From: Candidatus Omnitrophota bacterium
GTDB lineage: Bacteria; Omnitrophota; Gorgyraeia; Gygaellales; Profunditerraquicolaceae
Assembly (NCBI GenBank): GCA_025453395.1
Contig: JALOQK010000004.1
Location: 51,563 to 115,562, forward strand
Direction of reading: 5' to 3'
Length of the DNA stretch: 64,000 nucleotides
This document shows positions 5,225 through 59,450 of the stretch, piece after piece. The notes beneath the pieces are model-generated. The model was not told where the DNA came from, searched no databases, and saw only the letters and a list, made by a program, of their open reading frames with translations. A program made the position numbers and the translations under genes. Numbering within the stretch: position 1 is the stretch's first letter; each line of letters starts with the position of its first letter.

Positions 5225-6184
5225 TTATCGGCAATGGATAATATCCCCGGCCATGATCTTTTCTGTTATGCCGGAGTCTCTTCTGACCAATAGCCCCCCA
5301 TCATCGTCAATGTCCAAGGCCTGGCCCTGGATCTGTTTTCCTTTTAAACAGACCTTGACCCTCTTGCCTAAGGTAATATTAATATCGCGCCATTTGTCAA
5401 TAATACTCTTAAAATCGCCTTTTTGGAACAAAAGATAATTGCACTCGATCTTGCGCAGACATTCCTGTAAAAGAAGCACGCGCTCAACAGCAGTATTTGT
5501 GCAGCTTTTAAGGCAAATAGCATCCGCAACATTAGCCGGAGTATCATTAACATTAATGCCAAAACCTACAACCAAAAAATGCACCAGGTCTGCCTCCGCG
5601 CTTAACTCTGTTAATATCCCGGCCAACTTCTTATTTTTTATAAAGATATCGTTGGGCCATTTGATTTGAGCGCTAATCCCGGTTAATTCTTCTACAGCCT
5701 GACAAATACTTACTCCAATAAGAAGGGTCAAGATTGAAGTCTTGGAAGGCAAGATCTTCGGCCTTAAAATAACAGAGGCGCATATACCTTTATATTTTGG
5801 GGAAGCCCAAGATCTTCCTAAGCGGCCGCGGCCCTTGTTTTGCGCTTCCGCCAAAACAACCCCGCCCTCCGGATGGTTATCCATACCAAGCTTAATGGCC
5901 ACATCCATAGTAGAAGAAAGCGAATCATAATAATATATTTTCCTGCCGATGGTCTTGGTATTCAGGCCGTGCTTGACTTCTTGAGGGAAAAGCCGGTCCG
6001 GACAAGATATAAGCGTATAACCCAAATGCGGCACAGCTTGTATATCATATCCGGCGTCTTTAAGCTGTTGTATATGTTTCCAGAGGGCCTGGCGGCTTAT
6101 TCCCAAACGCACGCTTATTTCCTCTCCGGAAACATGTTCGCTTTTGCCTCTTAATAAATCAATTATTCTTTCTTCTGGCGTCAT
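5225..6184 (-). CDS. birA: bifunctional biotin--[acetyl-CoA-carboxylase] ligase / biotin operon repressor
   Basis: N-terminal HTH, GRGRLGRSW biotin-binding motif and C-terminal SH3-like domain. Confidence 0.9.
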   Translation of the reverse strand: MTPEERIIDLLRGKSEHVSGEEISVRLGISRQALWKHIQQLKDAGYDIQAVPHLGYTLISCPDRLFPQEVKHGLNTKTIGRKIYYYDSLSSTMDVAIKLGMDNHPEGGVVLAEAQNKGRGRLGRSWASPKYKGICASVILRPKILPSKTSILTLLIGVSICQAVEELTGISAQIKWPNDIFIKNKKLAGILTELSAEADLVHFLVVGFGINVNDTPANVADAICLKSCTNTAVERVLLLQECLRKIECNYLLFQKGDFKSIIDKWRDINITLGKRVKVCLKGKQIQGQALDIDDDGGLLVRRDSGITEKIMAGDIIHCR

Positions 6185-9816: not shown

Positions 9817-10263
9817 TTAGATTTGATAGGTTAGATTAATATTGCCTTTTTTCTTATAATAATCTTTTGCTAATTGCTCAAAATTAACATTGTCTACTAC
9901 CTGGGCTATCTTGCGGCTTATCGCCTGCCATACCGGGCGAAAAACACATTTCCTGATGTCATTGCACCCACTATAAGAGGAACTTACACAGGCAATCGGC
10001 TCAACCGGCCCGTCAATAAAACGCACCACATCCCCTAAGGTTATTTTGGAGGGGTGCTTTGCAAGGCTGTACCCTCCGATCTTGCCCCTTTGACTTTGCA
10101 CAAATCCCCCGCGCTTTAAATCCAAAAGTATTTGCTCAAGGAATTTTACCGGGATATCCGCCTGGCAAGCAAGTTCCGAGATAGTCACCGGTTTTTTCCC
10201 GTAAGAAGCAACCAGTATAAGAATTGTTTTTAAGGCGTAATCGCCTTTATAGGTTATGCGCAT
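9817..10263 (-). CDS. Rrf2-family transcriptional regulator (Fe-S type, IscR/CymR-like)
   Basis: wHTH N-terminus and three clustered Cys ([15 protein letters not shown]). Confidence 0.85.
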
Positions 10264-16750: not shown

Positions 16751-17461
16751 TTAATAACCAATGAATTTCTCGGTCTTAATGTTAGTTTGCGGGCAGTTTA
16801 TCCCTTGGGCTAAAACCTGCATTGCCTCTACCATCTTTGGCGGCCCAAAGATAAAAATTACCCTTTCTTGGGCATCACAGATATTAGCAGAAAGAAGCTC
16901 TTTGTTAATGCCTCCATAAAAACAGTTTTTATCTTTAGGCGCACATTCGGTTACAGTATAATAAACTTTCAAGGATTTATTGATTTCCATCCAATCATCC
17001 AGCTGTTTCTTAAAAGCTATTTCTTCTTCATTGCGGTTAGAATAAAAAACGGATATATCGCTTTGGATCTTGTTGCTTAAGACATACTCCAACATGGAAA
17101 TAACAGGTGTAATCCCTATGCCGCCGACCAAGAAACTGACCTTTTTAAATTGCTTCTCAAAAACACATGACCCCAAAGGGCCCTGAACAGACACGGAATC
17201 ATCTTTATTAAGGCCTAAAAGCTTATTTGAGAAACTGGACGCGCTTATCCTCTTGGTAACTTCGATATACCCTTTATCTGTACCGCAGGACAAAGAAAGA
17301 TATTTATTCAATTCTTTGTTACCAGGATTATGCTCATCAAAGATAAGGCGCATAAATTGACCAGGAAGAAAATCAACTCTTTCTTGCGGGAAGAAACGGA
17401 AACTGATCACAGTCGGGGTCCTTGGAATTTTTTCTATAAATTTCATCCGGAAATCTTTCAT
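16751..17461 (-). CDS. FAD/NAD(P)-binding ferredoxin-reductase-like oxidoreductase
   Basis: FNR-like two-domain pattern (RxYS-like FAD site, GGIGITP NAD motif). Candidate reductase for the rubredoxin/SOR/FprA chain. Confidence 0.65.
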   Translation of the reverse strand: MKDFRMKFIEKIPRTPTVISFRFFPQERVDFLPGQFMRLIFDEHNPGNKELNKYLSLSCGTDKGYIEVTKRISASSFSNKLLGLNKDDSVSVQGPLGSCVFEKQFKKVSFLVGGIGITPVISMLEYVLSNKIQSDISVFYSNRNEEEIAFKKQLDDWMEINKSLKVYYTVTECAPKDKNCFYGGINKELLSANICDAQERVIFIFGPPKMVEAMQVLAQGINCPQTNIKTEKFIGY

Positions 17462-20671: not shown

Positions 20672-21076
20672 TTAATTTCCCCTTATTAATTGGGACAATC
20701 TAATGCCTTTGAGCTGCCGCCTGACATAAGATTCTATTTCCTGGATTTTCTTGCGCACAAAACAAGTCTTAGTGTTTGGGCAAGGCATTTTCTTGAAGCT
20801 GCATTCATTTAACCTAAAGGGCCCTTGAAAAACACACATCAACTTTTCTAAGGTAATATTTCTCGCGCCTGGCGTTAATTTAAACCCCCCACCTGGGCCT
20901 TTTATAGAACCAAGAAGGCCATTTCTGCATAAAACCTGGGTGATCTTTCTTAAAAATGGCCGCGGGATCCCTAGATTCTTTACCAATTCTGATACAGGAA
21001 TAATCTTTTTAGAATGACGCTGTATATATATAAGAGACCTTAATGCATAATCTGTATCGCGAGTAATTAGTTTCAT
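20672..21076 (-). CDS. Rrf2-family regulator (NsrR-like, Fe-S type) upstream of hcp
   Basis: wHTH N-terminus and a Cys triad (CVFQGPFRLNEC...CP). Only 46 nt separate it from hcp. Confidence 0.8.
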   Translation of the reverse strand: MKLITRDTDYALRSLIYIQRHSKKIIPVSELVKNLGIPRPFLRKITQVLCRNGLLGSIKGPGGGFKLTPGARNITLEKLMCVFQGPFRLNECSFKKMPCPNTKTCFVRKKIQEIESYVRRQLKGIRLSQLIRGN

Positions 21077-33190: not shown

Positions 33191-33499
33191 TTATTTATTT
33201 TTCCTTAAAAACTCCAAGGCCTCCCAAGTGAAAATACAGCAAAACGGGATAACCACAAAAAATAACACCTCCTCCAGCGGCAGATTTATAATTTTTATTC
33301 CCCAGACTGCCCGAGGGTTAAAATACCAATGATTACGCCAGACTGCGAAAACATCCCATGAGCCGAAAATAATAACGATCAGAGATATAGAAAAGACAAG
33401 CGCGCGATAGTTTCTATAGAACCCAAGCCTGGGGTAAAAACTAAGCGCCAAAGGAAGTATCCCCGCTAATAACAAAACTTTCATATATAAAGAAACCAT
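33191..33499 (-). CDS. lycopene cyclase domain protein (second subunit)
   Basis: About 100 aa, PLEE motif. It pairs with the preceding gene. Confidence 0.6.
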   Translation of the reverse strand: MVSLYMKVLLLAGILPLALSFYPRLGFYRNYRALVFSISLIVIIFGSWDVFAVWRNHWYFNPRAVWGIKIINLPLEEVLFFVVIPFCCIFTWEALEFLRKNK

Positions 33500-41425: not shown

Positions 41426-41617
41426 TTATTCCCTGGCTAAACCCAAAATTACTAAACCGCAAAGCAATAAAACCACGCCGATACAGCCTTTAGCGATTAC
41501 CTTGATAGCGTAAAACCAGTGCATCATCGCCCAAACCCCCGCTGTCACCAAAACTAGGCCCAAAATAAGCTTTAAAAATACGGACAATTTCACTTTGCAC
41601 CTCTCTTTTCTAGCCAT
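41426..41617 (-). CDS. small 2-TM membrane protein (about 54-63 aa)
   Basis: The start is MARKERCK, or the GTG after an AGAGAGG RBS. The upstream part of the ORF-track call is a heptamer repeat that only appears to encode WQIANSKWQ. Confidence 0.35.
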   Translation of the reverse strand: MARKERCKVKLSVFLKLILGLVLVTAGVWAMMHWFYAIKVIAKGCIGVVLLLCGLVILGLARE

Positions 41618-41643
41618 TTGCCATTTGCTATTTGCTATTTGCC
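41613..41643. repeat. tandem heptamer repeat (CATTTGC/TATTTGC)x4
   Basis: Seen directly. It overlaps the lpxL-like stop codon region. Confidence 0.7.
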
Positions 41644-42552
41644 AACTGGGGGTTGGCTCTTCCATCTGCGATGGATCCATCCCCATTCCTGCGGGTACAT
41701 ACGGATATAGCGCTCAATTATATCAGTTAAACGCTGCACATTTAATATAATTGTGTCCTGAGAATTTTTGCCTTCTATCAAAGGGACTTCTTCATCAAAG
41801 ATAATTTTATGCGTATCATCAGCTTGCCTCAGAATAAAGCAAGGCAAAAGAACTGCCCTGGTGCGTTGGGCAAAGATAACCGGGCCTGTGGCAGTAGCTG
41901 CCTTGCGGCCAAAAAAATCCACAAATACCCCGGATGTGCCGAAATTCTGGTCAATAGGCAAGAATATTATCTCGTTATTGCGCAAGGCTTTTATGGTATT
42001 GTCCACGCAGACATTCTTGGGATAACTGTAAATAGTTTTTACCTTATATTTCTCGCGCTTCTCTAAGAATATTTTCTCTACCCGCGCGTCGTGCATCGGG
42101 CGCATGATCCCGCCTATGGCATATCCTTCCAAGCTTAATTTCCCCAGCATAATCGGGAAGTTGCCAAAGTGGCCGCTAACCAAAATCACGCCTCTTTTTT
42201 TTGCTAAAGCCTGATCCAATTTTTCCTTGTTGGCAATGGTTATTCTTTCTTTTAAAAGCCAAGGTTTATCCATCATGAACATAAGCTCTAACGATGCTTT
42301 AGACATAAAGGTAAAACTATCCCGGGCAATTTTCTCTATTTCTGCTTGTGTTTTATCTGGAAAGGCCATGCGCAAACTTTCCAGGGCGATCTTTCTTTGT
42401 CTGGCAATAACCGCATAGCCAAAAGCGGCAATGCCCTTAGCAAAAGGATACAAAAATCTCCAGGGCGTTATGTTTATAATCTTAGCGCAACTAACAAGCC
42501 CAATAAAGGCCAGGAATCGCGAAAATTCTTTTTTCTTCTTTTTAAAATCCAT
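41635..42552 (-). CDS. lpxL: LpxL/HtrB-family lipid A (Kdo2-lipid IVA) acyltransferase
   Basis: 305 aa, N-terminal anchor and LPLAT-like acyltransferase motifs (H..D-type region around SGHFGNF). This assignment is inferred from family resemblance. Confidence 0.7.
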   Translation of the reverse strand: MDFKKKKKEFSRFLAFIGLVSCAKIINITPWRFLYPFAKGIAAFGYAVIARQRKIALESLRMAFPDKTQAEIEKIARDSFTFMSKASLELMFMMDKPWLLKERITIANKEKLDQALAKKRGVILVSGHFGNFPIMLGKLSLEGYAIGGIMRPMHDARVEKIFLEKREKYKVKTIYSYPKNVCVDNTIKALRNNEIIFLPIDQNFGTSGVFVDFFGRKAATATGPVIFAQRTRAVLLPCFILRQADDTHKIIFDEEVPLIEGKNSQDTIILNVQRLTDIIERYIRMYPQEWGWIHRRWKSQPPVGK

Positions 42553-42556
42553 TTGT

Positions 42557-42598
42557 CAGCTATCAGCTTTCAGCTATCAGCTATCAGCTTTCAGCGCA
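42557..42598. repeat. tandem heptamer repeat (TCAGCTW)x6, ending 4 nt before the lpxL start
   Basis: Seen directly: TCAGCTA TCAGCTT TCAGCTA TCAGCTA TCAGCTT TCAGCGC. Confidence 0.8.
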
Positions 42599-42624
42599 TG
42601 GCGCCGTAAACTGTTAACTGTAAA

Positions 42625-43107
42625 CTATAACTTATATCCTATTTTTCTTAAGAGGTCTTTTCGTGATTGTTTTTCCTCTTTTGTTTCCACGCCTTTAGGC
42701 GGCAATCCGTCAATAACTCCTAAAATACCTCTGCCGGAATCTGTTTGGGCGAGAATAACCTCTATCGGGTTAGCGCTGGCGCAATAGATATTACAGACTT
42801 CCGGAACCATTTTAATCGCGTTTAAGACATTAACCGGATACGCGGCTTTTAAGAAAACAATAAAAACATGCCCGCAGGAAACAGCTAAAAGATTATCTTC
42901 TGCAAGCTTCAGAAGCTCTCTGTCATTGCCCTCAAGGCGGATCTTACAAACTCCCGAGGCTTCAGAAAAACCTACAGCAAACTTTACTAACGGGACACTA
43001 TTAACAATTGCCTCATAGATGTCTTCGGCTGTCTTAATGAAATGGCTCTGGCCGATAATTACATTCAAATCATCGGATTTCTTTATCTTTACGGTAACAA
43101 TTTCCAT
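42625..43107 (-). CDS. conserved hypothetical protein (possibly adenosine-specific kinase family, PF04008-like)
   Basis: 160 aa. The assignment rests on remembered family resemblance (..NIYCASANPIEV..GRGILGVIDG..) and is uncertain. Confidence 0.4.
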   Translation of the reverse strand: MEIVTVKIKKSDDLNVIIGQSHFIKTAEDIYEAIVNSVPLVKFAVGFSEASGVCKIRLEGNDRELLKLAEDNLLAVSCGHVFIVFLKAAYPVNVLNAIKMVPEVCNIYCASANPIEVILAQTDSGRGILGVIDGLPPKGVETKEEKQSRKDLLRKIGYKL

Positions 43108-43157
43108 CTTATTCGCCCCCCTATTTTAGGCTACATATTAACATAAGAATGACAGCA

Positions 43158-43316
43158 AATCAATCACCAAACACCAAATTACCTGCCTACCGGCAGGCAG
43201 GCAAACACCAAATAATACCCAATAATCAATAACCAATTAACCAAACAGATTCGGGTATTGGTAATTGGTATTTGGTTATTATTTGGTTATTGTAAACTTG
43301 ATTATTGGTTATTAAA
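43158..43316. promoter_or_regulatory. long imperfect inverted repeat built from ACCAAA(T) / (A)TTTGGTTATT direct repeats, plus a CCTGCC-TACC-GGCAGG hairpin, in the divergent region upstream of the CDF gene
   Basis: Seen directly. TTGGTTATT occurs three times on the right arm, and its complement motifs occur on the left arm. Confidence 0.5.
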
Positions 43317-43319
43317 AAG

Positions 43320-43356
43320 TTGTTACTACCCATAAAATATTGTATAATAATTTTAT
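43320..43356 (+). promoter_or_regulatory. sigma70-like promoter (TTGTTA-17 bp-TGTATAAT) overlapped by the perfect palindrome CCATAAAAT-ATTGTATAATA-ATTTTATGG. The predicted TSS is at or near the ATG at 43355, so the mRNA may be leaderless
   Basis: Seen directly. The palindrome spans 43328-43356 and covers the -10 box and the start codon. Confidence 0.45.
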
Positions 43357-44224
43357 GGAAACAAACGATAATAAGTATAAAACAATCCGCAAGGTTTTAA
43401 TTATTGTGCTTATCTTAAACTGGCTGGTAGCGGGCTTTAAAATTGCCTTTGGCCTATTTACCCGCTGCGCCAGTATGACTGCCGACGGATTCCATTCCCT
43501 TGCTGACGGGGCATCCAATATTATAGGGCTTGCCGGCATCCATTTTGCCAGCCAGCCTAAAGACAGCGACCATCCTTATGGGCACAAGAAATTTGAAACC
43601 TTCTTTACTTTAGGCATCGCGGTATTACTGTTCTTGGTAGCCATAGAATTATTCAAAGAAGGCATCGCCCGCTTAGGCAAACCAGTAACCCCAGAAATAA
43701 ACTTCGCGAGTTTCATTGTCATGATTTCAACCATGATAATCAATATTCTGGTAATGTTATACGAGCGCAACCGCGGCAAAAAACTCTCAAGCGATATCCT
43801 GACTTCTGACGCCCTGCACACAAAAGCGGACATCTTTGTTTCCTTCTCGGTTATTATCACTTTAATACTTATCCAGCGGGGATTCTTCCTGGCTGACGCG
43901 ATTGTCACTTTGGCTATCGCGTTTCTTATCGCTTACAGCGGAATTGGCATCTTAAAAGAAAGTTCGCGTGTTTTATGCGACTCAACAGTATTAGATGATA
44001 AATACATTGAGAAAATTGTTCTTTCTGTGCCGGGAGTGCGCACCTGCCATAAAATACGCACCCGCGGAAGGACTGACGATGTGCATGTAGATTTACATGT
44101 GCAGGTTACCCCCAGCATGCATGTGGATAAAGCGCACACGGTCAGTGACACTATTGAAGAAACGCTAAAAAAAACCCTGCCCGGAGTAACGGATGTAATT
44201 GTGCACATTGAGCCGACTTCTTAA
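43355..44224 (+). CDS. cation diffusion facilitator (CDF) family metal efflux transporter
   Basis: 6 TM helices, the HSLADG motif and a C-terminal cytoplasmic domain with His/Asp. The start is taken at METNDNK; the ORF-track start at 43340 lies inside the -10 box. Confidence 0.8.
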   Translation: METNDNKYKTIRKVLIIVLILNWLVAGFKIAFGLFTRCASMTADGFHSLADGASNIIGLAGIHFASQPKDSDHPYGHKKFETFFTLGIAVLLFLVAIELFKEGIARLGKPVTPEINFASFIVMISTMIINILVMLYERNRGKKLSSDILTSDALHTKADIFVSFSVIITLILIQRGFFLADAIVTLAIAFLIAYSGIGILKESSRVLCDSTVLDDKYIEKIVLSVPGVRTCHKIRTRGRTDDVHVDLHVQVTPSMHVDKAHTVSDTIEETLKKTLPGVTDVIVHIEPTS

Positions 44225-45696
44225 AGAACAAATAAAATTACCCCCGCCAAAGTCACAAACACATCCCCATAGCGGGTGTAAAAAGTATTTCTCAAGGCGC
44301 AATCCTGAAATTGACAGCTACTAAAACCACCTATAAAAGTATTTTCCCCGCCTTTTTCTACCAAAGACAATATCTTTCCTGAAGGCGCGATAAAACCTGA
44401 AATCCCGGTATTGGCAGAACGCGCCAGGAATACCCTGTTCTCCAGCGCCCTGAAAACTGAAGCCTGCAAATGCTGCCGGGGCGCAGAAGTTTTCTTATAC
44501 CAGGCGTCATTGGTGATATTCACCAAAAGCCCCGCGCCTTGCTTTACAAAAGAACGCGCCAGCTCCGGGAATAGATCCTCAAAACAGATCAACACTGCGC
44601 ATTTAACAGAAAAACTTGCCTTCTTGGCGGCAACAGGAAACAATGTGTAATCTTTCCCCGGGCTAATATCGCCTATCGGAGCAATGGATTCTAAGAAAGG
44701 AAATACGCCGCGAAAGGGAATATATTCTCCAAAGGGCACAAGGTGCAGCTTGTTGTATACAGCTAAAATATCGCTTTTAGCGGATAAAAGAAGCGCGCTA
44801 TTATAATATTTTTGATTTTCTGTCCTGACTGCGCCTAAAAGAAGCTGCGATCTTAGCCCACGGTTAAAATCCTGAACAAGCTTAAAATATCGCGGCTGTT
44901 CTTCCAATACTACCGGCAAGGCCGCCTCCGGCCAGATAATCAAATCCGGATTATCCGTTCCTGATAAACGCGCGGTTGTTTCCATGAATCTGGCCATAAT
45001 AAAATCGCGATTATCCTCGGACCACTTTAATTCTTGGTCTATATTGGACTGGACAACCCCTAAGTTTAAATCAAGTTTCTGGCTTAAACTATTTACCTTG
45101 TTTAATCTTATAAACCCATAAAAGAGTACTGCCAATAAAACTACAACTGCTACTAACGCCTGCTTCAGGCGCAAATTTAAAGATATTTCTTTTTGCAATA
45201 GAATAAACACCCCGGCATTGACCAGAACAATAACAAAAGAAACCCCGTAAACGCCTGCCAAATCAGCTACCTGAATAAAGGGAAGATTTAAATATTGAGA
45301 ATAGCCTAAACTTGCCCAGCCAAACCCGGTAAAAAGATGCGCCCTTGTGTATTCTAAAACAGACCAGGCCCCCGGGAGAATCCATAAAATACGCATCGGG
45401 CTTTTTTTGTTCAGGAAAACCGCGGTTAAAACCCCGAAAACCCCGAAATAACAACAAAGATAGGCAATTAAAACCACTGTCCCTAAGAAAGTTACATGCA
45501 CCAGCCAATAGATCGCCCCCCACCAAAATATCATTCCCGATAGATAGGCGATAAAAAATGATTTTATAAGCGGCTGTTTTCTTAAAGCAAAGAAAAGCGG
45601 CACAAAGGCAACGAATGCTAAATAGGAAAGATTAAAATCCGGAAAGGAAAGAAAAAGTAAAATCCCTGAAAAGGAAGCTAAAATAAAAGGGAACAA
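44221..45696 (-). CDS. lnt: apolipoprotein N-acyltransferase
   Basis: N-terminal multi-TM domain plus a nitrilase/CN-hydrolase domain (E..K..C triad region). It has a TTG start with a GAGGT RBS. Confidence 0.8.
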   Translation of the reverse strand: MFPFILASFSGILLFLSFPDFNLSYLAFVAFVPLFFALRKQPLIKSFFIAYLSGMIFWWGAIYWLVHVTFLGTVVLIAYLCCYFGVFGVLTAVFLNKKSPMRILWILPGAWSVLEYTRAHLFTGFGWASLGYSQYLNLPFIQVADLAGVYGVSFVIVLVNAGVFILLQKEISLNLRLKQALVAVVVLLAVLFYGFIRLNKVNSLSQKLDLNLGVVQSNIDQELKWSEDNRDFIMARFMETTARLSGTDNPDLIIWPEAALPVVLEEQPRYFKLVQDFNRGLRSQLLLGAVRTENQKYYNSALLLSAKSDILAVYNKLHLVPFGEYIPFRGVFPFLESIAPIGDISPGKDYTLFPVAAKKASFSVKCAVLICFEDLFPELARSFVKQGAGLLVNITNDAWYKKTSAPRQHLQASVFRALENRVFLARSANTGISGFIAPSGKILSLVEKGGENTFIGGFSSCQFQDCALRNTFYTRYGDVFVTLAGVILFVL

Positions 45697-45711: not shown

Positions 45712-45746
45712 TCAGCTATCAGCTGTCAGCCTTCAGCTATCAGCTA
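45712..45746. repeat. tandem heptamer repeat TCAGCTA TCAGCTG TCAGCCT TCAGCTA TCAGCTA between the secA stop and the lnt RBS
   Basis: Seen directly. It is almost identical to the copy at 59416-59450. Confidence 0.8.
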
Positions 45747-48662
45747 TTTTCCACAGCACTTCTTATATTTCTTCCCCGAGCCGCAAGGACAAGGTTGGTT
45801 TCTGCCGACTTTTTCCGAAGTTGCCTGTTGCTGCGCAACCGGGGCATTTATATTACTACCTGTATCTCCGGGCGCCTGGCCTTGCTCTGGAAACCCTTCG
45901 GCATCAGGATGCAACATGCGCTGTGAACGCGCTGAGAAAACCTGTTTGAATTTTTCCTGCTGGCTCTGGGGCTGGAGTTTAAAAATAATCTCTGCCGCCT
46001 CTTCTTCAATGGTGGCAATCATTTCCGCAAACATCTCAAAGGCCTCGCGCTTATATTCAATCAAGGGGTCGCGCTGGCCATAGGCGCGAAGCCCAATCCC
46101 CTCTCTTAAACTATCCATGGCGTAAAGGTGCTCTTTCCATTTGGTATCAATAATCTGCAAGAAGACCATGCGCTCTAAATGCCTAAGCATCTTTTCGCCG
46201 ATAGCCTGCTCTTTATTATTGTAATACTCTTGGGCCTTCTCCAGTAAATAGACAGCGGCGTCTTTGGCAGATTTCTCAAAGTCTTTCTTTTCAATTTCTA
46301 TGCCCAATTTAAGCCGCATCTCATCAAATACCACCTGAAAATCACGCGCTTCCGGGTCATTCTCCGAGGCTACATAGGCATTTACCTTTTCTTCAATTAT
46401 TTTACCGGCGACATCAAGAATGCTATCTTTAAGCGAAAGCCCCTCTAAAACATCTCTTCTTTGGGCATAAATAACCTCACGCTGCTTATTCATCACATTG
46501 TCATAATCCAATAATTGCTTGCGAATTTCAAAATTATGCTGCTCCACGCGCTTTTGCGCCACCTCAATGGATCTAGTTACCCAAGGATGCTCAATAACCT
46601 GGCCCTCTTCCAAACCTAAAGCAGCCATCATGCCGCTAATCTTATCTGAACCGAACAAGCGCATCAGATTATCTTCAAGGGAAATATAAAAACGCGATGA
46701 CCCCGGGTCACCCTGCCTGGCGCAGCGGCCGCGCAGCTGATTATCAATACGCCTTGCCTCATGGCGTTCAGTAGCTAAAACATGTAAACCGTCTAAAGCA
46801 ACCACCTGCTCATGCTCTTTAAGGCAGGACTGCTTGAAATCCTGCAGGGCCTTCTTAACCTGGTCATTATAATCCGGGGCCTCTTGATCTAACTTATGCT
46901 GAATAAAACTTTTAGCTAGGAAATCCGGATTGCCCCCTAAAAGTATATCTGTGCCGCGGCCAGCCATATTTGTGGCAATGGTCACGGCTTTATAATGGCC
47001 TGCCTGCGCCACAATTTGCGCTTCTCTTTCATGATGTTTAGCATTTAAAACTTCATGTTCTATCCCGCGCATCTTTAACATCTCTGAAAGCTTTTCGGAT
47101 TTATCAATGGATACTGTCCCCACTAATACGGGCCTGCCTTTTTCATGCAATTCACAGATTTCATCTACCACTGCTTTAAATTTCTCTTTTTCCGTGCGGT
47201 AAATACAATCCGGATAATTATGACGGATCAAGGGCCGGTTGGTAGGAACATTGACCACGTCCAGCCGGTATATATCCTTGAATTCATTGGCCTCGGTAGA
47301 AGCTGTGCCGGTCATGCCGGAAAGCTTCTCATACATACGGAAGTAATTCTGAAAAGTCACTGTAGCTAAAGTTTGGTTTTCCCGCTCAATCTTAATGCCT
47401 TCTTTTGCCTCTACCGCCTGGTGCAGGCCATCGGACCAGCGCCTTCCGGGCATCATTCTTCCGGTAAACTCATCCACAATGATAACTTCGCCGTCCTTAA
47501 CCACATAATCCACGTCGCGCTGGAAGAATTCTTTAGCGCGCAAGGCCTGAATAGTATGGTGCCTGAATTCCATAGTATCAATATTATGCAGGCTTTCTAC
47601 CCCCCAAAGTTTTGCCGCGCGGGATTCTCCGTCTTCAGTCAAAGATATCGTCCTTGCTTTCTCGTCGGCGAGATATTCATACCCTTTGGTTAAATCAATC
47701 CCTTTGTGCTTGGCATTAATCTCATCTTTCTCAAGCACTCTTCTGCCCTTTAAAGAATCAGCGATATGCCGGGCAGTATAATATTTATCGGTTGCCTCTT
47801 CAGCCGGGCCGGAAATAATTAGCGGGGTGCGCGCTTCATCAATCAAGATTGAATCCACTTCATCCACAATCGCAAAATAAAAACCTCTCTGCACAAGATC
47901 TTCAAGGTTGTATTTCATATTATCGCGCAGATAATCAAAACCAAACTCGTTGTTGGTGCCATAGGTAATATCGCAATTATAAGCGGCCTGTCTTTCCTGG
48001 TCATCCATTTCATGCTGAATAACCCCCACGGTTAAACCTAAGAATTCAAACACCGGCCCCATCCATTCCCGGTCGCGTCTGGCTAAATAATCATTGACCG
48101 TAACAATATGCACGCCCTTGCCTAAAAGCGCGTTTAAATAAGCTGCCAATGTTGCTACAAGGGTCTTCCCTTCTCCGGTGGACATTTCAGAGATTTTCCC
48201 CTCGTGCAAAATAACCCCGCCGGCTATCTGCACATCAAAATGCCTCAAACCGATGGCGCGCTTAGAGGCTTCTCTTACTACGGCAAAACTTTCTGCCAAG
48301 ATATCTTCAAAGATTTTATTGCGGGTGGATTTTATTTTCTCTTTGATGCGGTCCTTCTCCTCGGGTATAGCTACTTCAAAAAGCTCTGCCTCTAACTGTT
48401 CTATCTGAGAGGCGCATTCCCTGGCCTTATCGGAAATGTGTTGCCTGAAATAATCTGTTTTCTCTTTTAACTGCGCATCGCTTAAACCAGAAATTGTTTC
48501 TTCAAAGGAATTTACTTTATAGACTATCCCCGCCAAATCCGCCATTTTGCTCATTGATGGAGATGGCATATCCGGATGCAAAACAATATTGACTCCGGGA
48601 AAATTCTTTACAATGCCGCCCTGCTTGCTTTTTAACACCTGCTGTTTAATCCATCCGAACAT
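45744..48662 (-). CDS. secA: preprotein translocase ATPase SecA
   Basis: DEAD-motor motifs, the preprotein cross-linking domain and the C-terminal zinc-binding tail CPCGSGKKYKKCCG. 972 aa. Confidence 0.95.
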   Translation of the reverse strand: MFGWIKQQVLKSKQGGIVKNFPGVNIVLHPDMPSPSMSKMADLAGIVYKVNSFEETISGLSDAQLKEKTDYFRQHISDKARECASQIEQLEAELFEVAIPEEKDRIKEKIKSTRNKIFEDILAESFAVVREASKRAIGLRHFDVQIAGGVILHEGKISEMSTGEGKTLVATLAAYLNALLGKGVHIVTVNDYLARRDREWMGPVFEFLGLTVGVIQHEMDDQERQAAYNCDITYGTNNEFGFDYLRDNMKYNLEDLVQRGFYFAIVDEVDSILIDEARTPLIISGPAEEATDKYYTARHIADSLKGRRVLEKDEINAKHKGIDLTKGYEYLADEKARTISLTEDGESRAAKLWGVESLHNIDTMEFRHHTIQALRAKEFFQRDVDYVVKDGEVIIVDEFTGRMMPGRRWSDGLHQAVEAKEGIKIERENQTLATVTFQNYFRMYEKLSGMTGTASTEANEFKDIYRLDVVNVPTNRPLIRHNYPDCIYRTEKEKFKAVVDEICELHEKGRPVLVGTVSIDKSEKLSEMLKMRGIEHEVLNAKHHEREAQIVAQAGHYKAVTIATNMAGRGTDILLGGNPDFLAKSFIQHKLDQEAPDYNDQVKKALQDFKQSCLKEHEQVVALDGLHVLATERHEARRIDNQLRGRCARQGDPGSSRFYISLEDNLMRLFGSDKISGMMAALGLEEGQVIEHPWVTRSIEVAQKRVEQHNFEIRKQLLDYDNVMNKQREVIYAQRRDVLEGLSLKDSILDVAGKIIEEKVNAYVASENDPEARDFQVVFDEMRLKLGIEIEKKDFEKSAKDAAVYLLEKAQEYYNNKEQAIGEKMLRHLERMVFLQIIDTKWKEHLYAMDSLREGIGLRAYGQRDPLIEYKREAFEMFAEMIATIEEEAAEIIFKLQPQSQQEKFKQVFSARSQRMLHPDAEGFPEQGQAPGDTGSNINAPVAQQQATSEKVGRNQPCPCGSGKKYKKCCGK

Positions 48663-59415: not shown

Positions 59416-59450
59416 ATCAGCTTTCAGCTGTCAGCCTTCAGCTATCAGCT
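59416..59450. repeat. tandem heptamer repeat TCAGCTT TCAGCTG TCAGCCT TCAGCTA TCAGCTA between the paaK stop and the ACT-protein RBS
   Basis: Seen directly. Confidence 0.8.

Follow-up and report, generated by a model that had tools for sequence, protein, structure and literature searches.

Conserved divergent promoters and a probable heptamer-repeat filler upstream of a CDF metal exporter gene in Candidatus Omnitrophota

We analyzed the intergenic region upstream of a CDF metal exporter gene in a 64-kb stretch of DNA from a Candidatus Omnitrophota bacterium (64,000 nucleotides, hereafter the window), where that region separates the CDF gene, on the plus strand, from a gene of the adenosine-specific-kinase family (AK), on the minus strand. 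According to our favored reading, which we hold with moderate confidence, the region is composed of two conserved back-to-back promoters separated by approximately 150 bp of lineage-specific heptamer filler, and contains neither a metal operator nor a set of iterons. The metal operator and iteron story told in an earlier note on the same DNA turned out to be unsupported, and is replaced here by a simple anatomy that is directly testable. Positions are those of the window throughout, and L-numbers designate the fetched loci and contigs, L001 being the window's own contig. The region had been described as 232 nt long, a length obtained only by counting up to an in-frame TTG at 43340; up to the ATG at 43355, it measures 247 nt (43108-43354). 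That ATG is backed as the start of the CDF gene by the JGI gene call and by the N-termini of 19 homologues, and the plus-strand features around it are as follows:

43314-43319, plus strand: A-rich stretch directly 5' of the -35 hexamer
43320-43325, plus strand: CDF -35 hexamer TTGTTA, from the promoter scan and the orthologue comparison
43343-43348, plus strand: CDF -10 hexamer TATAAT, ending 6 nt 5' of the ATG
43355-44224, plus strand: CDF metal exporter gene, 289 aa, with Cation_efflux and ZT_dimer domains

The CDF promoter, TTGTTA(43320)-17-TATAAT, scores 10/12 in the promoter scan, and the TTGTTA reported earlier 17 bp upstream of the -10 is indeed in place. The same -10 had been read as an extended one (TGTATAAT), a description that has to be dropped, as the TG abuts the hexamer, unlike in TGnTATAAT, and the promoter scan reports no TG motif. 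To place this promoter among its relatives, counts were made over 81 loci, namely 80 orthologous Omnitrophota CDF loci plus L001, in each of which the start codon was located. The upstream pattern is nearly uniform: TTGAAA, TTGCAA or TTTGCA, followed by 16-17 nt, TATAAT or TACAAT, another 6-8 nt, and the ATG. A promoter score of at least 9/12 was obtained in 78 of the 81 loci, the exact hexamer TATAAT is present in 59, and 74 have 6-8 nt between the end of the -10 and the ATG (6 nt in the window). A Shine-Dalgarno (SD)-like tetramer was found in only 7/81. Moreover, the position of the CDF start codon is pinned by several loci in which the ATG is the first codon after an in-frame stop. The A-rich stretch at 43314-43319, to which AAATAAT corresponds in the same place in orthologues, is possibly an UP-like element.

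With the -10 placed 6-8 nt before the ATG, the transcription start site (TSS) is predicted to fall on or beside the A of the start codon, that is, at 43355 in the window. RNA polymerase would accordingly start at the A of the CDF ATG from a sigma-70-type promoter, and the resulting leaderless mRNA would be bound directly by ribosomes. A leaderless start had been suggested earlier from the promoter geometry of this one locus, and gains support from conservation; it is probably a phylum-wide property of the CDF gene. The window contains approximately four promoter-plus-start arrangements of the leaderless type in all, and the organism appears to use both SD-led and leaderless initiation, since the neighboring AK gene has a GGGGGG Shine-Dalgarno sequence. 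A second candidate divergent leaderless pair was noticed at 33499 (minus strand) and 33565 (plus strand), upstream of genes for a lycopene cyclase domain protein and a phytoene/squalene synthase; the overlap of its two -35 boxes is a palindromic TTGGCAA, and 6-7 nt separate the end of each -10 from the ATG that follows. The literature library searched contained no paper on leaderless mRNAs in Omnitrophota. The conserved geometry is sequence-level evidence for systematic leaderless initiation in Omnitrophota, a phylum without model organisms, and covers the CDF exporter and, in many relatives, the divergent PIG-L-like gene described below.

On the minus strand, the region carries the promoter of the AK/lipid A acyltransferase operon:

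43159-43164, minus strand: divergent -35 TTGATT, 17 nt from its -10
43136-43144, minus strand: divergent extended -10 TGT-TAATAT
42625-43107, minus strand: AK-family gene (PF04008), first gene of the minus-strand run

This second sigma-70-type promoter, TTGATT-17-TGT-TAATAT, would drive the operon through a short SD leader: the transcript is predicted to start near 43129, with a leader of about 22-27 nt and the GGGGGG Shine-Dalgarno at 43116-43121. The divergent promoter is also conserved. At 60-100 nt upstream of the CDF start, many orthologues have the strings 'ttatcatata' and 'aaatcaa', and read on the minus strand these are TTGATT/TTGACT-17-TGnTAnAAT, i.e., the extended -10 promoter of the divergent gene. 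A good divergent promoter of this TGnTAnAAT type is present in 49 orthologous loci, with TTGATT as the commonest -35 (20/49). In most orthologues (approximately 40 loci besides L003, positions 1500-2909), the promoter is owned by a gene of 440-485 aa that stands between AK and CDF, and which, judged from its sequence, we take to be PIG-L/LmbE-like. In about 20 loci the extended -10 of this gene ends 6-10 nt before its ATG, so that such loci would hold a divergent pair of leaderless genes. The PIG-L-like gene is missing from the window, as a tblastn search of the window with the L003 protein gave no match. The idea that the filler is a decayed PIG-L gene was therefore rejected, no detectable remnant being found.

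The two promoters are constant and the distance between them is not. Over the 49 loci, the median gap between the divergent -35 boxes is about 29 nt, and in 36 of them the gap does not exceed 63 nt; that of the window, 156 nt, is the second largest. Where AK and CDF are direct neighbors, 11 loci have an intergenic region of 101-141 nt and three have one of 212-235 nt, against 247 nt in the window. In one subclade, both promoters align base for base and the spacer varies from approximately 10 to approximately 125 nt. Because most orthologues have a short spacer and close relatives differ strongly in its length, the block of repeats and hairpin at 43165-43313 appears to be extra DNA at a place where length is free to vary, and it would persist there because the distance between divergent -35 boxes is little constrained. 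The block is built as follows:

43166-43181, plus strand: outer part of the left array, ACCAAAC ACCAAAT TA
43182-43201: GC palindrome CCTGCCTACCGGCAGGCAGG, inserted in phase in the left array, with CAAACACCAAAT on both sides
43202-43246, plus strand: inner part of the left array, CAAAC ACCAAAT AATACCC AATAATC AATAACC AATTAACC AAAC
43247-43252: central loop of the foldback, AGATTC
43253-43313, plus strand: right array, inverted relative to the left one, GGGTATT GGTAATT GGTATTT GGTTATT (ATTT) GGTTATT ... GGTTATT

Five ACCAA motifs (43166, 43173, 43207, 43232, 43240) are followed by five TTGGT motifs (43258, 43265, 43272, 43283, 43305), giving a density of 10 ACCAA/TTGGT per 200 nt, compared with at most 4 elsewhere in the 64 kb. 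Tandem Repeats Finder (TRF) detects (AATAACC)x4.3 at 43214-43244 and (ATTGGTA)x3.4 at 43257-43280, both of period 7, and the lag-7 autocorrelation is 0.61 in each arm versus 0.37-0.41 in shuffles (p<=0.0005). When the 20-nt hairpin is removed, the autocorrelation rises from 0.47 to 0.61 at lag 7 and from 0.34 to 0.66 at lag 14. As deletion of the hairpin restores an uninterrupted in-phase array, the anatomy is that of two inverted heptamer arrays plus an inserted palindrome. With 4.3 and 3.4 copies, the arrays reach the approximately three or more head-to-tail copies of heptanucleotide simple-sequence-repeat (SSR) arrays, and they form an inverted pair, an AATAACC-type array at 43202-43246 standing opposite a GGTTATT-type array at 43253-43313.

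All of the sequence features that had been described here at first sight are present, some of them in a modified form. The CCTGCC-TACC-GGCAGG hairpin lies at 43182-43201. The long inverted repeat exists as well, although arms of about 60 nt are reached only with more mismatches, the best ungapped repeat (43202-43237/43257-43292) being 36 nt long with 81% identity. ACCAAA and TTGGTTATT repeats occur in the arms, but the unit is a degenerate heptamer and neither ACCAAAT nor a 9-mer; single TTGGTTATT matches at 16753, 27611, 27665 and 31611 are coding or SD-adjacent and do not form arrays. By contrast, the proposal that these units are iteron-like binding sites does not fit: they are degenerate heptanucleotide SSRs, of a class that is over-represented in Omnitrophota, both between genes and in coding DNA, with many different unit sequences, and they occupy a spacer whose length is small in most orthologues and varies greatly from one close relative to the next. 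The filler would consist, then, of inverted degenerate heptamer arrays (ACCAAAY/AATAACC versus GGTTATT) with an in-phase 20-nt GC palindrome, most likely produced by replication slippage, template switching and insertion of a small palindrome. No phase variation is expected from it, because changes in heptamer copy number would spare both -35/-10 spacings. The only other assembly of the locus, a Logan contig from SRR12684589 (L002), is equivalent to window 43210-44524 and identical in sequence; it stops at 43210, inside the left heptamer array and just to the right of the GC hairpin, which could mean that the assembly broke where the site is polymorphic or repetitive.

The heptamer repeats of the spacer belong to an already described class, that of heptanucleotide SSRs, and it is their occurrence in Omnitrophota that appears to be new. 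A TRF survey of 551 kb of Omnitrophota locus DNA showed that period 7 is over-represented in the lineage: 81 of approximately 290 arrays have this period, and at scores of at least 40 there are 28 such arrays, versus at most 14 for any other period. Among 25 pairs of arrays less than 400 nt apart, a related unit recurs in direct orientation in 5 and in inverted orientation in 4 (null expectation approximately 1%), and in L060 an inverted heptamer pair is found in the same CDF-upstream spacer. A literature search on heptamer or tandem repeats in Omnitrophota yielded nothing relevant.

Within the window, TRF reports further heptamer arrays at 41613-41644, 42556-42595, 42606-42630, 45712-45747 and 59417-59450. 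Those at 42556-42595, 45712-45747 and 59417-59450 (minus strand) are built of NAGCTGA units, e.g., TAGCTGATAGCTGAAGGCTGACAGCTGA, and occupy short spacers between co-directional genes. All three frames of this unit are closed by stop codons. Only 3 nt separate the end of the array at 42556-42595 from the ATG that follows. The arrays at 45712-45747 and 59417-59450 begin at the TAG stop of the upstream gene and lie 15-20 nt before the next start; in L003, the closest relative, (GCTGAAA)x4.6 was found at 5839-5870. Of the remaining two arrays (minus strand), (GCAAATA)x4.6 at 41613-41644 extends across the acyltransferase stop codon and the N-terminus called for the small open reading frame (ORF) that follows, and (AGTTTAC)x3.6 at 42606-42630 follows the AK stop, a small GCGC-CAT-GCGC hairpin separating it from the NAGCTGA array.

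Heptamer arrays were also observed inside the open frame of lnt, encoding apolipoprotein N-acyltransferase, in L012, L034, L036, L053, L077, L048 and others. In L034 (5883-6016) and L053 (4163-4298), for instance, the arrays flank a segment coding for a transmembrane helix. Positions were compared over 57 loci with recognizable lnt anchors, and the arrays fall at loop positions: 10 end just before ISVIQGN, 12 lie approximately 70-170 nt upstream of it (most at about 110), 8 lie just before LICFED, and, by our own reading, some 8 more lie approximately 300-390 nt upstream of ISVIQGN. The unit differs from genome to genome, and arrays of the same genome frequently repeat one unit, in direct or inverted orientation (L034, L053, L077). 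The lnt reading frames stay open despite the arrays, and 7-nt repeats within coding DNA are unusual.

The GC palindrome of the spacer has a distribution of its own. It belongs to a family, CCTGCCT(G/A)CCGGCAGGCAGG, with at least 131 sites in at least 120 metagenome stretches (L083-L202). Among the matches listed, the host contigs range in GC content from 0.29 to 0.71, and two variants are common, with G at 83 sites and the A/T form at 47 (others, 1). Long open frames (at least 100 codons) make up 87% of all bases in these matches and contain 42% of the sites, so that 58% of the sites lie in the 13% of the DNA outside such frames; in the flanks, direct or inverted repeats are approximately 10-fold more frequent than at control positions. 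The 20-mer is often flanked on both sides by like short tandem repeats or set in longer palindromes, and once it is excised, the repeat pattern runs on without a break in the window, L028, L085 and L155. It has a single copy in the 64-kb window, three copies in L048 (3119, 3755 and 4212; two exact, one a loop variant) and five in L177, with further sites in L028 (5527), L071 (4883) and upstream of the CDF gene of L068; a 21-nt version sits in frame within lnt of L048.

A technical artefact is an unlikely source of the 20-mer, as it occurs in JGI, ENA and NCBI assemblies, is enriched in intergenic DNA and stands in phase with repeats. A general link between the palindrome and heptamer arrays was considered and rejected, a clean periodic junction being present in only about 4 of the 126 metagenome sites listed. 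The sites in L193 and L140 resemble, by eye, partial tRNA-like fragments. A hairpin of the tRNA-intron kind was rejected, as ARAGORN finds no tRNA at these two sites, with or without the hairpin. A literature search for the 20-mer sequence returned nothing relevant.

The patterns of the lnt arrays and of the 20-mer suggest a process that generates or spreads repeats and is filtered by selection. We raise, as a tentative and rather doubtful extension, the idea that such a lineage-specific process is active in Omnitrophota, possibly also in other uncultivated lineages, and that the locus studied here is one of its footprints. This idea is based on genome-specific arrays at recurring tolerant positions, including four loop positions in lnt, an essential gene, and on the 20-mer, with its precise in-phase insertion in arrays without target duplication and its spread over many taxa. 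If true, it would imply that very small mobile or templated insertions of a new kind exist, with an affinity for simple-sequence repeats. In-frame lnt arrays and the widespread 20-mer represent natural experiments on the origin and tolerance of repeats, and these phylum-wide phenomena may be of greater importance than the finding made upstream of the CDF gene.

The last element of the region is a palindrome that brackets the CDF -10:

43330-43338: left palindrome arm CCATAAAAT, perfect over 9 bp, inside the promoter spacer
43350-43358: right palindrome arm ATTTTATGG, perfect over 9 bp, containing the start codon

The earlier note had reported a perfect palindrome overlapping an extended -10 and the ATG; the perfect 9-bp arms are there (geometry 9-11-9, 43330-43358, with a spacer of 11 nt), and the canonical extended -10 is not. 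Perfect inverted repeats with arms of at least 9 bp and spacers of at most 15 nt number 10 in the window, compared with approximately 5.6 in Markov-1 simulations. Over the 81 promoters, the distribution of best inverted repeats is close to that of shuffles, with arms of 7-9 bp in 11 loci versus 5.6 expected, and no palindrome sequence or position is shared among them. The palindrome is thus private to the window genome, and appears to be a feature of it with no demonstrated function; after allowing for the approximately 60 gene starts of the window, it is not compelling.

Several observations weigh against two promoters plus inert filler as a complete account. Unrelated palindromes are present in the same spacer elsewhere (L027/L049, L043, L059/L069, L030, L068), examples of such palindromes or GC hairpins from other Omnitrophota being AGGGACGGTTCT...AGAACCGTCCCT and GTAGACCTACGCGGTCTACATATATGTAGACCGCGTAGGTCTAC, and their presence in several orthologues could reflect selection for a hairpin instead of mere tolerance. 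The region also folds much better than shuffled sequences (z-scores of -5.7 for RNA of the plus strand, -4.0 for RNA of the minus strand and -4.8 for DNA), and the foldback, with z-scores of -4 to -5.7, could act structurally, by forming a cruciform or by insulating the two promoters from each other. The perfect 9-bp palindrome is rare for its own 48-nt promoter stretch, the shuffle expectation being approximately 0.004, and the case for a leaderless start is one of geometry and conservation. Moreover, gain or loss of the filler is not datable, because the closest CDF relatives are only about 66% identical: the protein search returned no relative between 67% and 100% identity.

Among the alternatives, the one that survives best, though in our judgment unlikely, takes the palindrome CCATAAAAT-N11-ATTTTATGG as the operator of a dimeric, possibly metal-sensing repressor that would occlude the CDF -10 and +1. 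Perfect arms with centers 20 bp apart (approximately two helical turns) that bracket the -10 are what such a site would offer, shuffles would yield only about 0.3 repeats of this kind in 48-nt stretches per 81 loci, and CDF exporters are commonly metal-regulated. The palindrome is, however, conserved neither in sequence nor in position in the 80 orthologous loci. A search for further copies, as the earlier note had proposed in order to define a regulon, gave no match beyond chance at up to three mismatches in the 64-kb window, and the 10 comparable perfect repeats against approximately 5.6 by chance place it near background. No Fur, ArsR or MerR gene was found among ten small ORFs scanned with Pfam or in a crude motif screen of the window ORFs of at least 70 aa; the only small regulators found were Rrf2-family genes at 9817-10263 and 20672-21076 (both minus strand), each more than 20 kb from the CDF gene. 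The palindrome also appears to be unlike the Fur, Zur, PerR and CzrA consensus boxes. The proposal of a Fur/Zur/PerR operator is therefore left without orthologue conservation, a second window copy, a better than chance-level palindrome or a regulator gene among the window ORFs screened.

A second alternative, which we regard as quite unlikely, is that the foldback is a functional DNA or RNA structure, either a cruciform or insulator, or a short minus-strand transcript starting from the symmetric -10 region and ended by the GC hairpin before the AK promoter. The strongly negative fold z-scores on both strands and as DNA speak for it, as do the unrelated long palindromes in the same spacer of several orthologues; divergent transcription, furthermore, makes negative supercoiling that favors extrusion. 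On the minus strand, the GC hairpin (43207-43180) followed by ATTTGGTGTT scores terminator-like and passes a simple terminator scan, but the U-tract is weak, the U-run being interrupted, and there is no known upstream transcription unit. In addition, no acceptable -35 is available for a minus-strand promoter at the palindrome, and neither sequence nor structure is conserved. The locus does not need the hairpin, because most orthologues have 3-60 nt between the -35 boxes and no hairpin. The AT-rich foldback may still extrude as a cruciform, or the GC hairpin may end a minus-strand transcript, within the favored reading of two promoters and a filler.

It is even less probable that the whole 150-bp foldback is a non-autonomous mobile element inserted between the promoters, similar to a miniature inverted-repeat transposable element or a foldback transposon. 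Its inverted-repeat architecture, with subrepeated arms, its status as extra DNA with respect to orthologues, and the embedded GC palindrome, whose family is widely dispersed, intergenic-enriched and multi-copy in some contigs, are all compatible with that origin. Nevertheless, neither the 64-kb window nor the 80 related loci were found to contain a second copy of the 155-nt element or of its foldback, and there is no target-site duplication at 43165/43313: the flanks AAATCAAT and TTAAAAAG contain no direct repeat, element boundaries being uncertain. The arms, moreover, are degenerate heptamer arrays of the kind that arises in situ elsewhere, including within lnt.

Finally, it is hardly credible that the repeats are iterons of a replication origin or that the region is a metal riboswitch or regulatory RNA in the 5' untranslated region (5'-UTR) of the CDF gene, even though repeated units and strong predicted RNA folding are present and, in other phyla, CDF genes do follow NiCo and Mn riboswitches. 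The cumulative GC skew of the window is monotonic, 42900-43500 holds no DnaA box, the neighbors are housekeeping genes and the unit is 7 nt instead of 17-22 nt, which led us to reject an origin, while an Rfam covariance search of 42900-43600 at E<=10 (including NiCo/czcD and yybP-ykoY) returned only chance-level miRNA and small RNA hits, and the repeats would not be part of the CDF mRNA because the conserved CDF promoter lies downstream of them.

The window lies within the JGI metagenome contig Ga0392394_0000032 (122.5 kb). With respect to the genomic context, the AK gene is followed in the minus-strand run by genes for a lipid A acyltransferase, a small membrane ORF, BioY and a CitMHS transporter. 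The minus strand holds approximately 58 of the 63 predicted genes of the window, the CDF gene being one of the few on the plus strand; because of this distribution, and because GC skew is negative throughout, the window suggests a single replichore with strongly co-oriented genes. The small membrane ORF after the acyltransferase (41426-41686, minus strand; 79-86 aa) has a weak precomputed Pfam match to MamI (PF26391), a magnetosome protein family. The best solved homologue of the CDF protein is FieF/YiiP of E. coli (E = 9e-31). The transport-site residues of the window protein, H47/D51/H155/D159, align to D45, D49, H153 and D157 of YiiP, and a His-Asp/His-Asp pattern points to exporters of the Zn/Co/Cd type. 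This pattern suggests that the window protein would be such a Zn/Co/Cd-type exporter.

Compared with known systems, the predicted CDF transcript resembles the leaderless mRNAs that are common in Actinobacteria, Deinococcus-Thermus and archaea, with a -10 that ends 6-7 nt before the ATG, no SD sequence and an ATG start; it differs from them in that the Omnitrophota case is built on conservation and a predicted TSS. The palindrome, for its part, shares with Fur/Zur/PerR and ArsR/SmtB operators an overlap with the -10 of a metal transporter gene. Known boxes, however, have a 7-1-7 or 19-bp arrangement in the Fur family and 12-2-12 in ArsR, unlike the 9-11-9 geometry seen here, which moreover is not conserved and for which the searches of the window yielded neither regulon copies nor a cognate regulator. 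The 20-mer, among the matches listed, is REP-like in being a short, GC-rich, dispersed and mostly extragenic palindrome. Repetitive extragenic palindromes (REPs), bacterial interspersed mosaic elements (BIMEs) and the Rickettsia palindromic elements (RPEs) are palindromic dispersed elements, RPEs lying in frame in genes and REPs being species-specific and associated with REP-associated tyrosine transposases (RAYTs). The 20-mer is like these elements in being small, dispersed, intergenic-enriched and occasionally in frame (lnt of L048). Unlike REP/BIME elements, it is only 20 nt long and is not species-specific, because its host contigs range in GC content from 0.29 to 0.71, and no mobilizing enzyme was identified, no transposase search having been made.

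As for the heptamer arrays, the window resembles the short tandemly repeated repetitive (STRR) sequences of cyanobacteria, which are likewise tandem heptanucleotides with several units per genome and a mainly intergenic location, and differs from them in phylum and in units. We know of no association of cyanobacterial STRRs with a GC palindrome. The Omnitrophota can join a short list of heptanucleotide-rich lineages. STRR heptamers of Calothrix and Anabaena are among the cases cited in PMC4692102. In many prokaryotes, heptameric SSRs have been described as the commonest class of long SSRs (Mrazek et al. 2007, as cited in PMC4679880 and PMC4692102), and the cause proposed for them, as outlined in the same two articles, is polymerase slippage over a 7-nt contact (PMC4679880, PMC4692102).

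Xanthomonas genomes have approximately 185 GGGAATC arrays each, with 70-75 convergent pairs able to form stem-loops or cruciforms; these arrays comprise 2 to 26 units, mostly four, are under-represented between divergent genes, and had no regulatory role that could be found (PMC4692102). The Omnitrophota arrays are similar in their degenerate 7-nt units (approximately 3-5 clear copies here), mostly intergenic location, frequent inverted pairing, variation of length and sequence between relatives, and lack of a demonstrated regulatory role. In contrast to Xanthomonas, the window unit is A/T-rich (AATAACC) and not of the kind that forms G-quadruplexes, a GC palindrome interrupts one array, Omnitrophota genomes have many units and no single dominant one, and the pair studied here stands between divergent promoters. 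In marine Beggiatoaceae, some cyanobacteria and Bacteroidetes, TAACTGA direct repeats in 2-6 copies are found just upstream of start codons (MacGregor 2015, PMC4679880). The arrays of the CDF spacer depart from that system, as they lie upstream of the promoter and not in a 5'-UTR, have another unit and are paired in inverted orientation. It is the NAGCTGA arrays of the window that come closest to it, since they share the stop-C-stop design (TAG-C-TGA versus TAA-C-TGA) and are intergenic, and the one at 42556-42595, ending 3 nt before a start codon, occupies the position typical of TAACTGA repeats.

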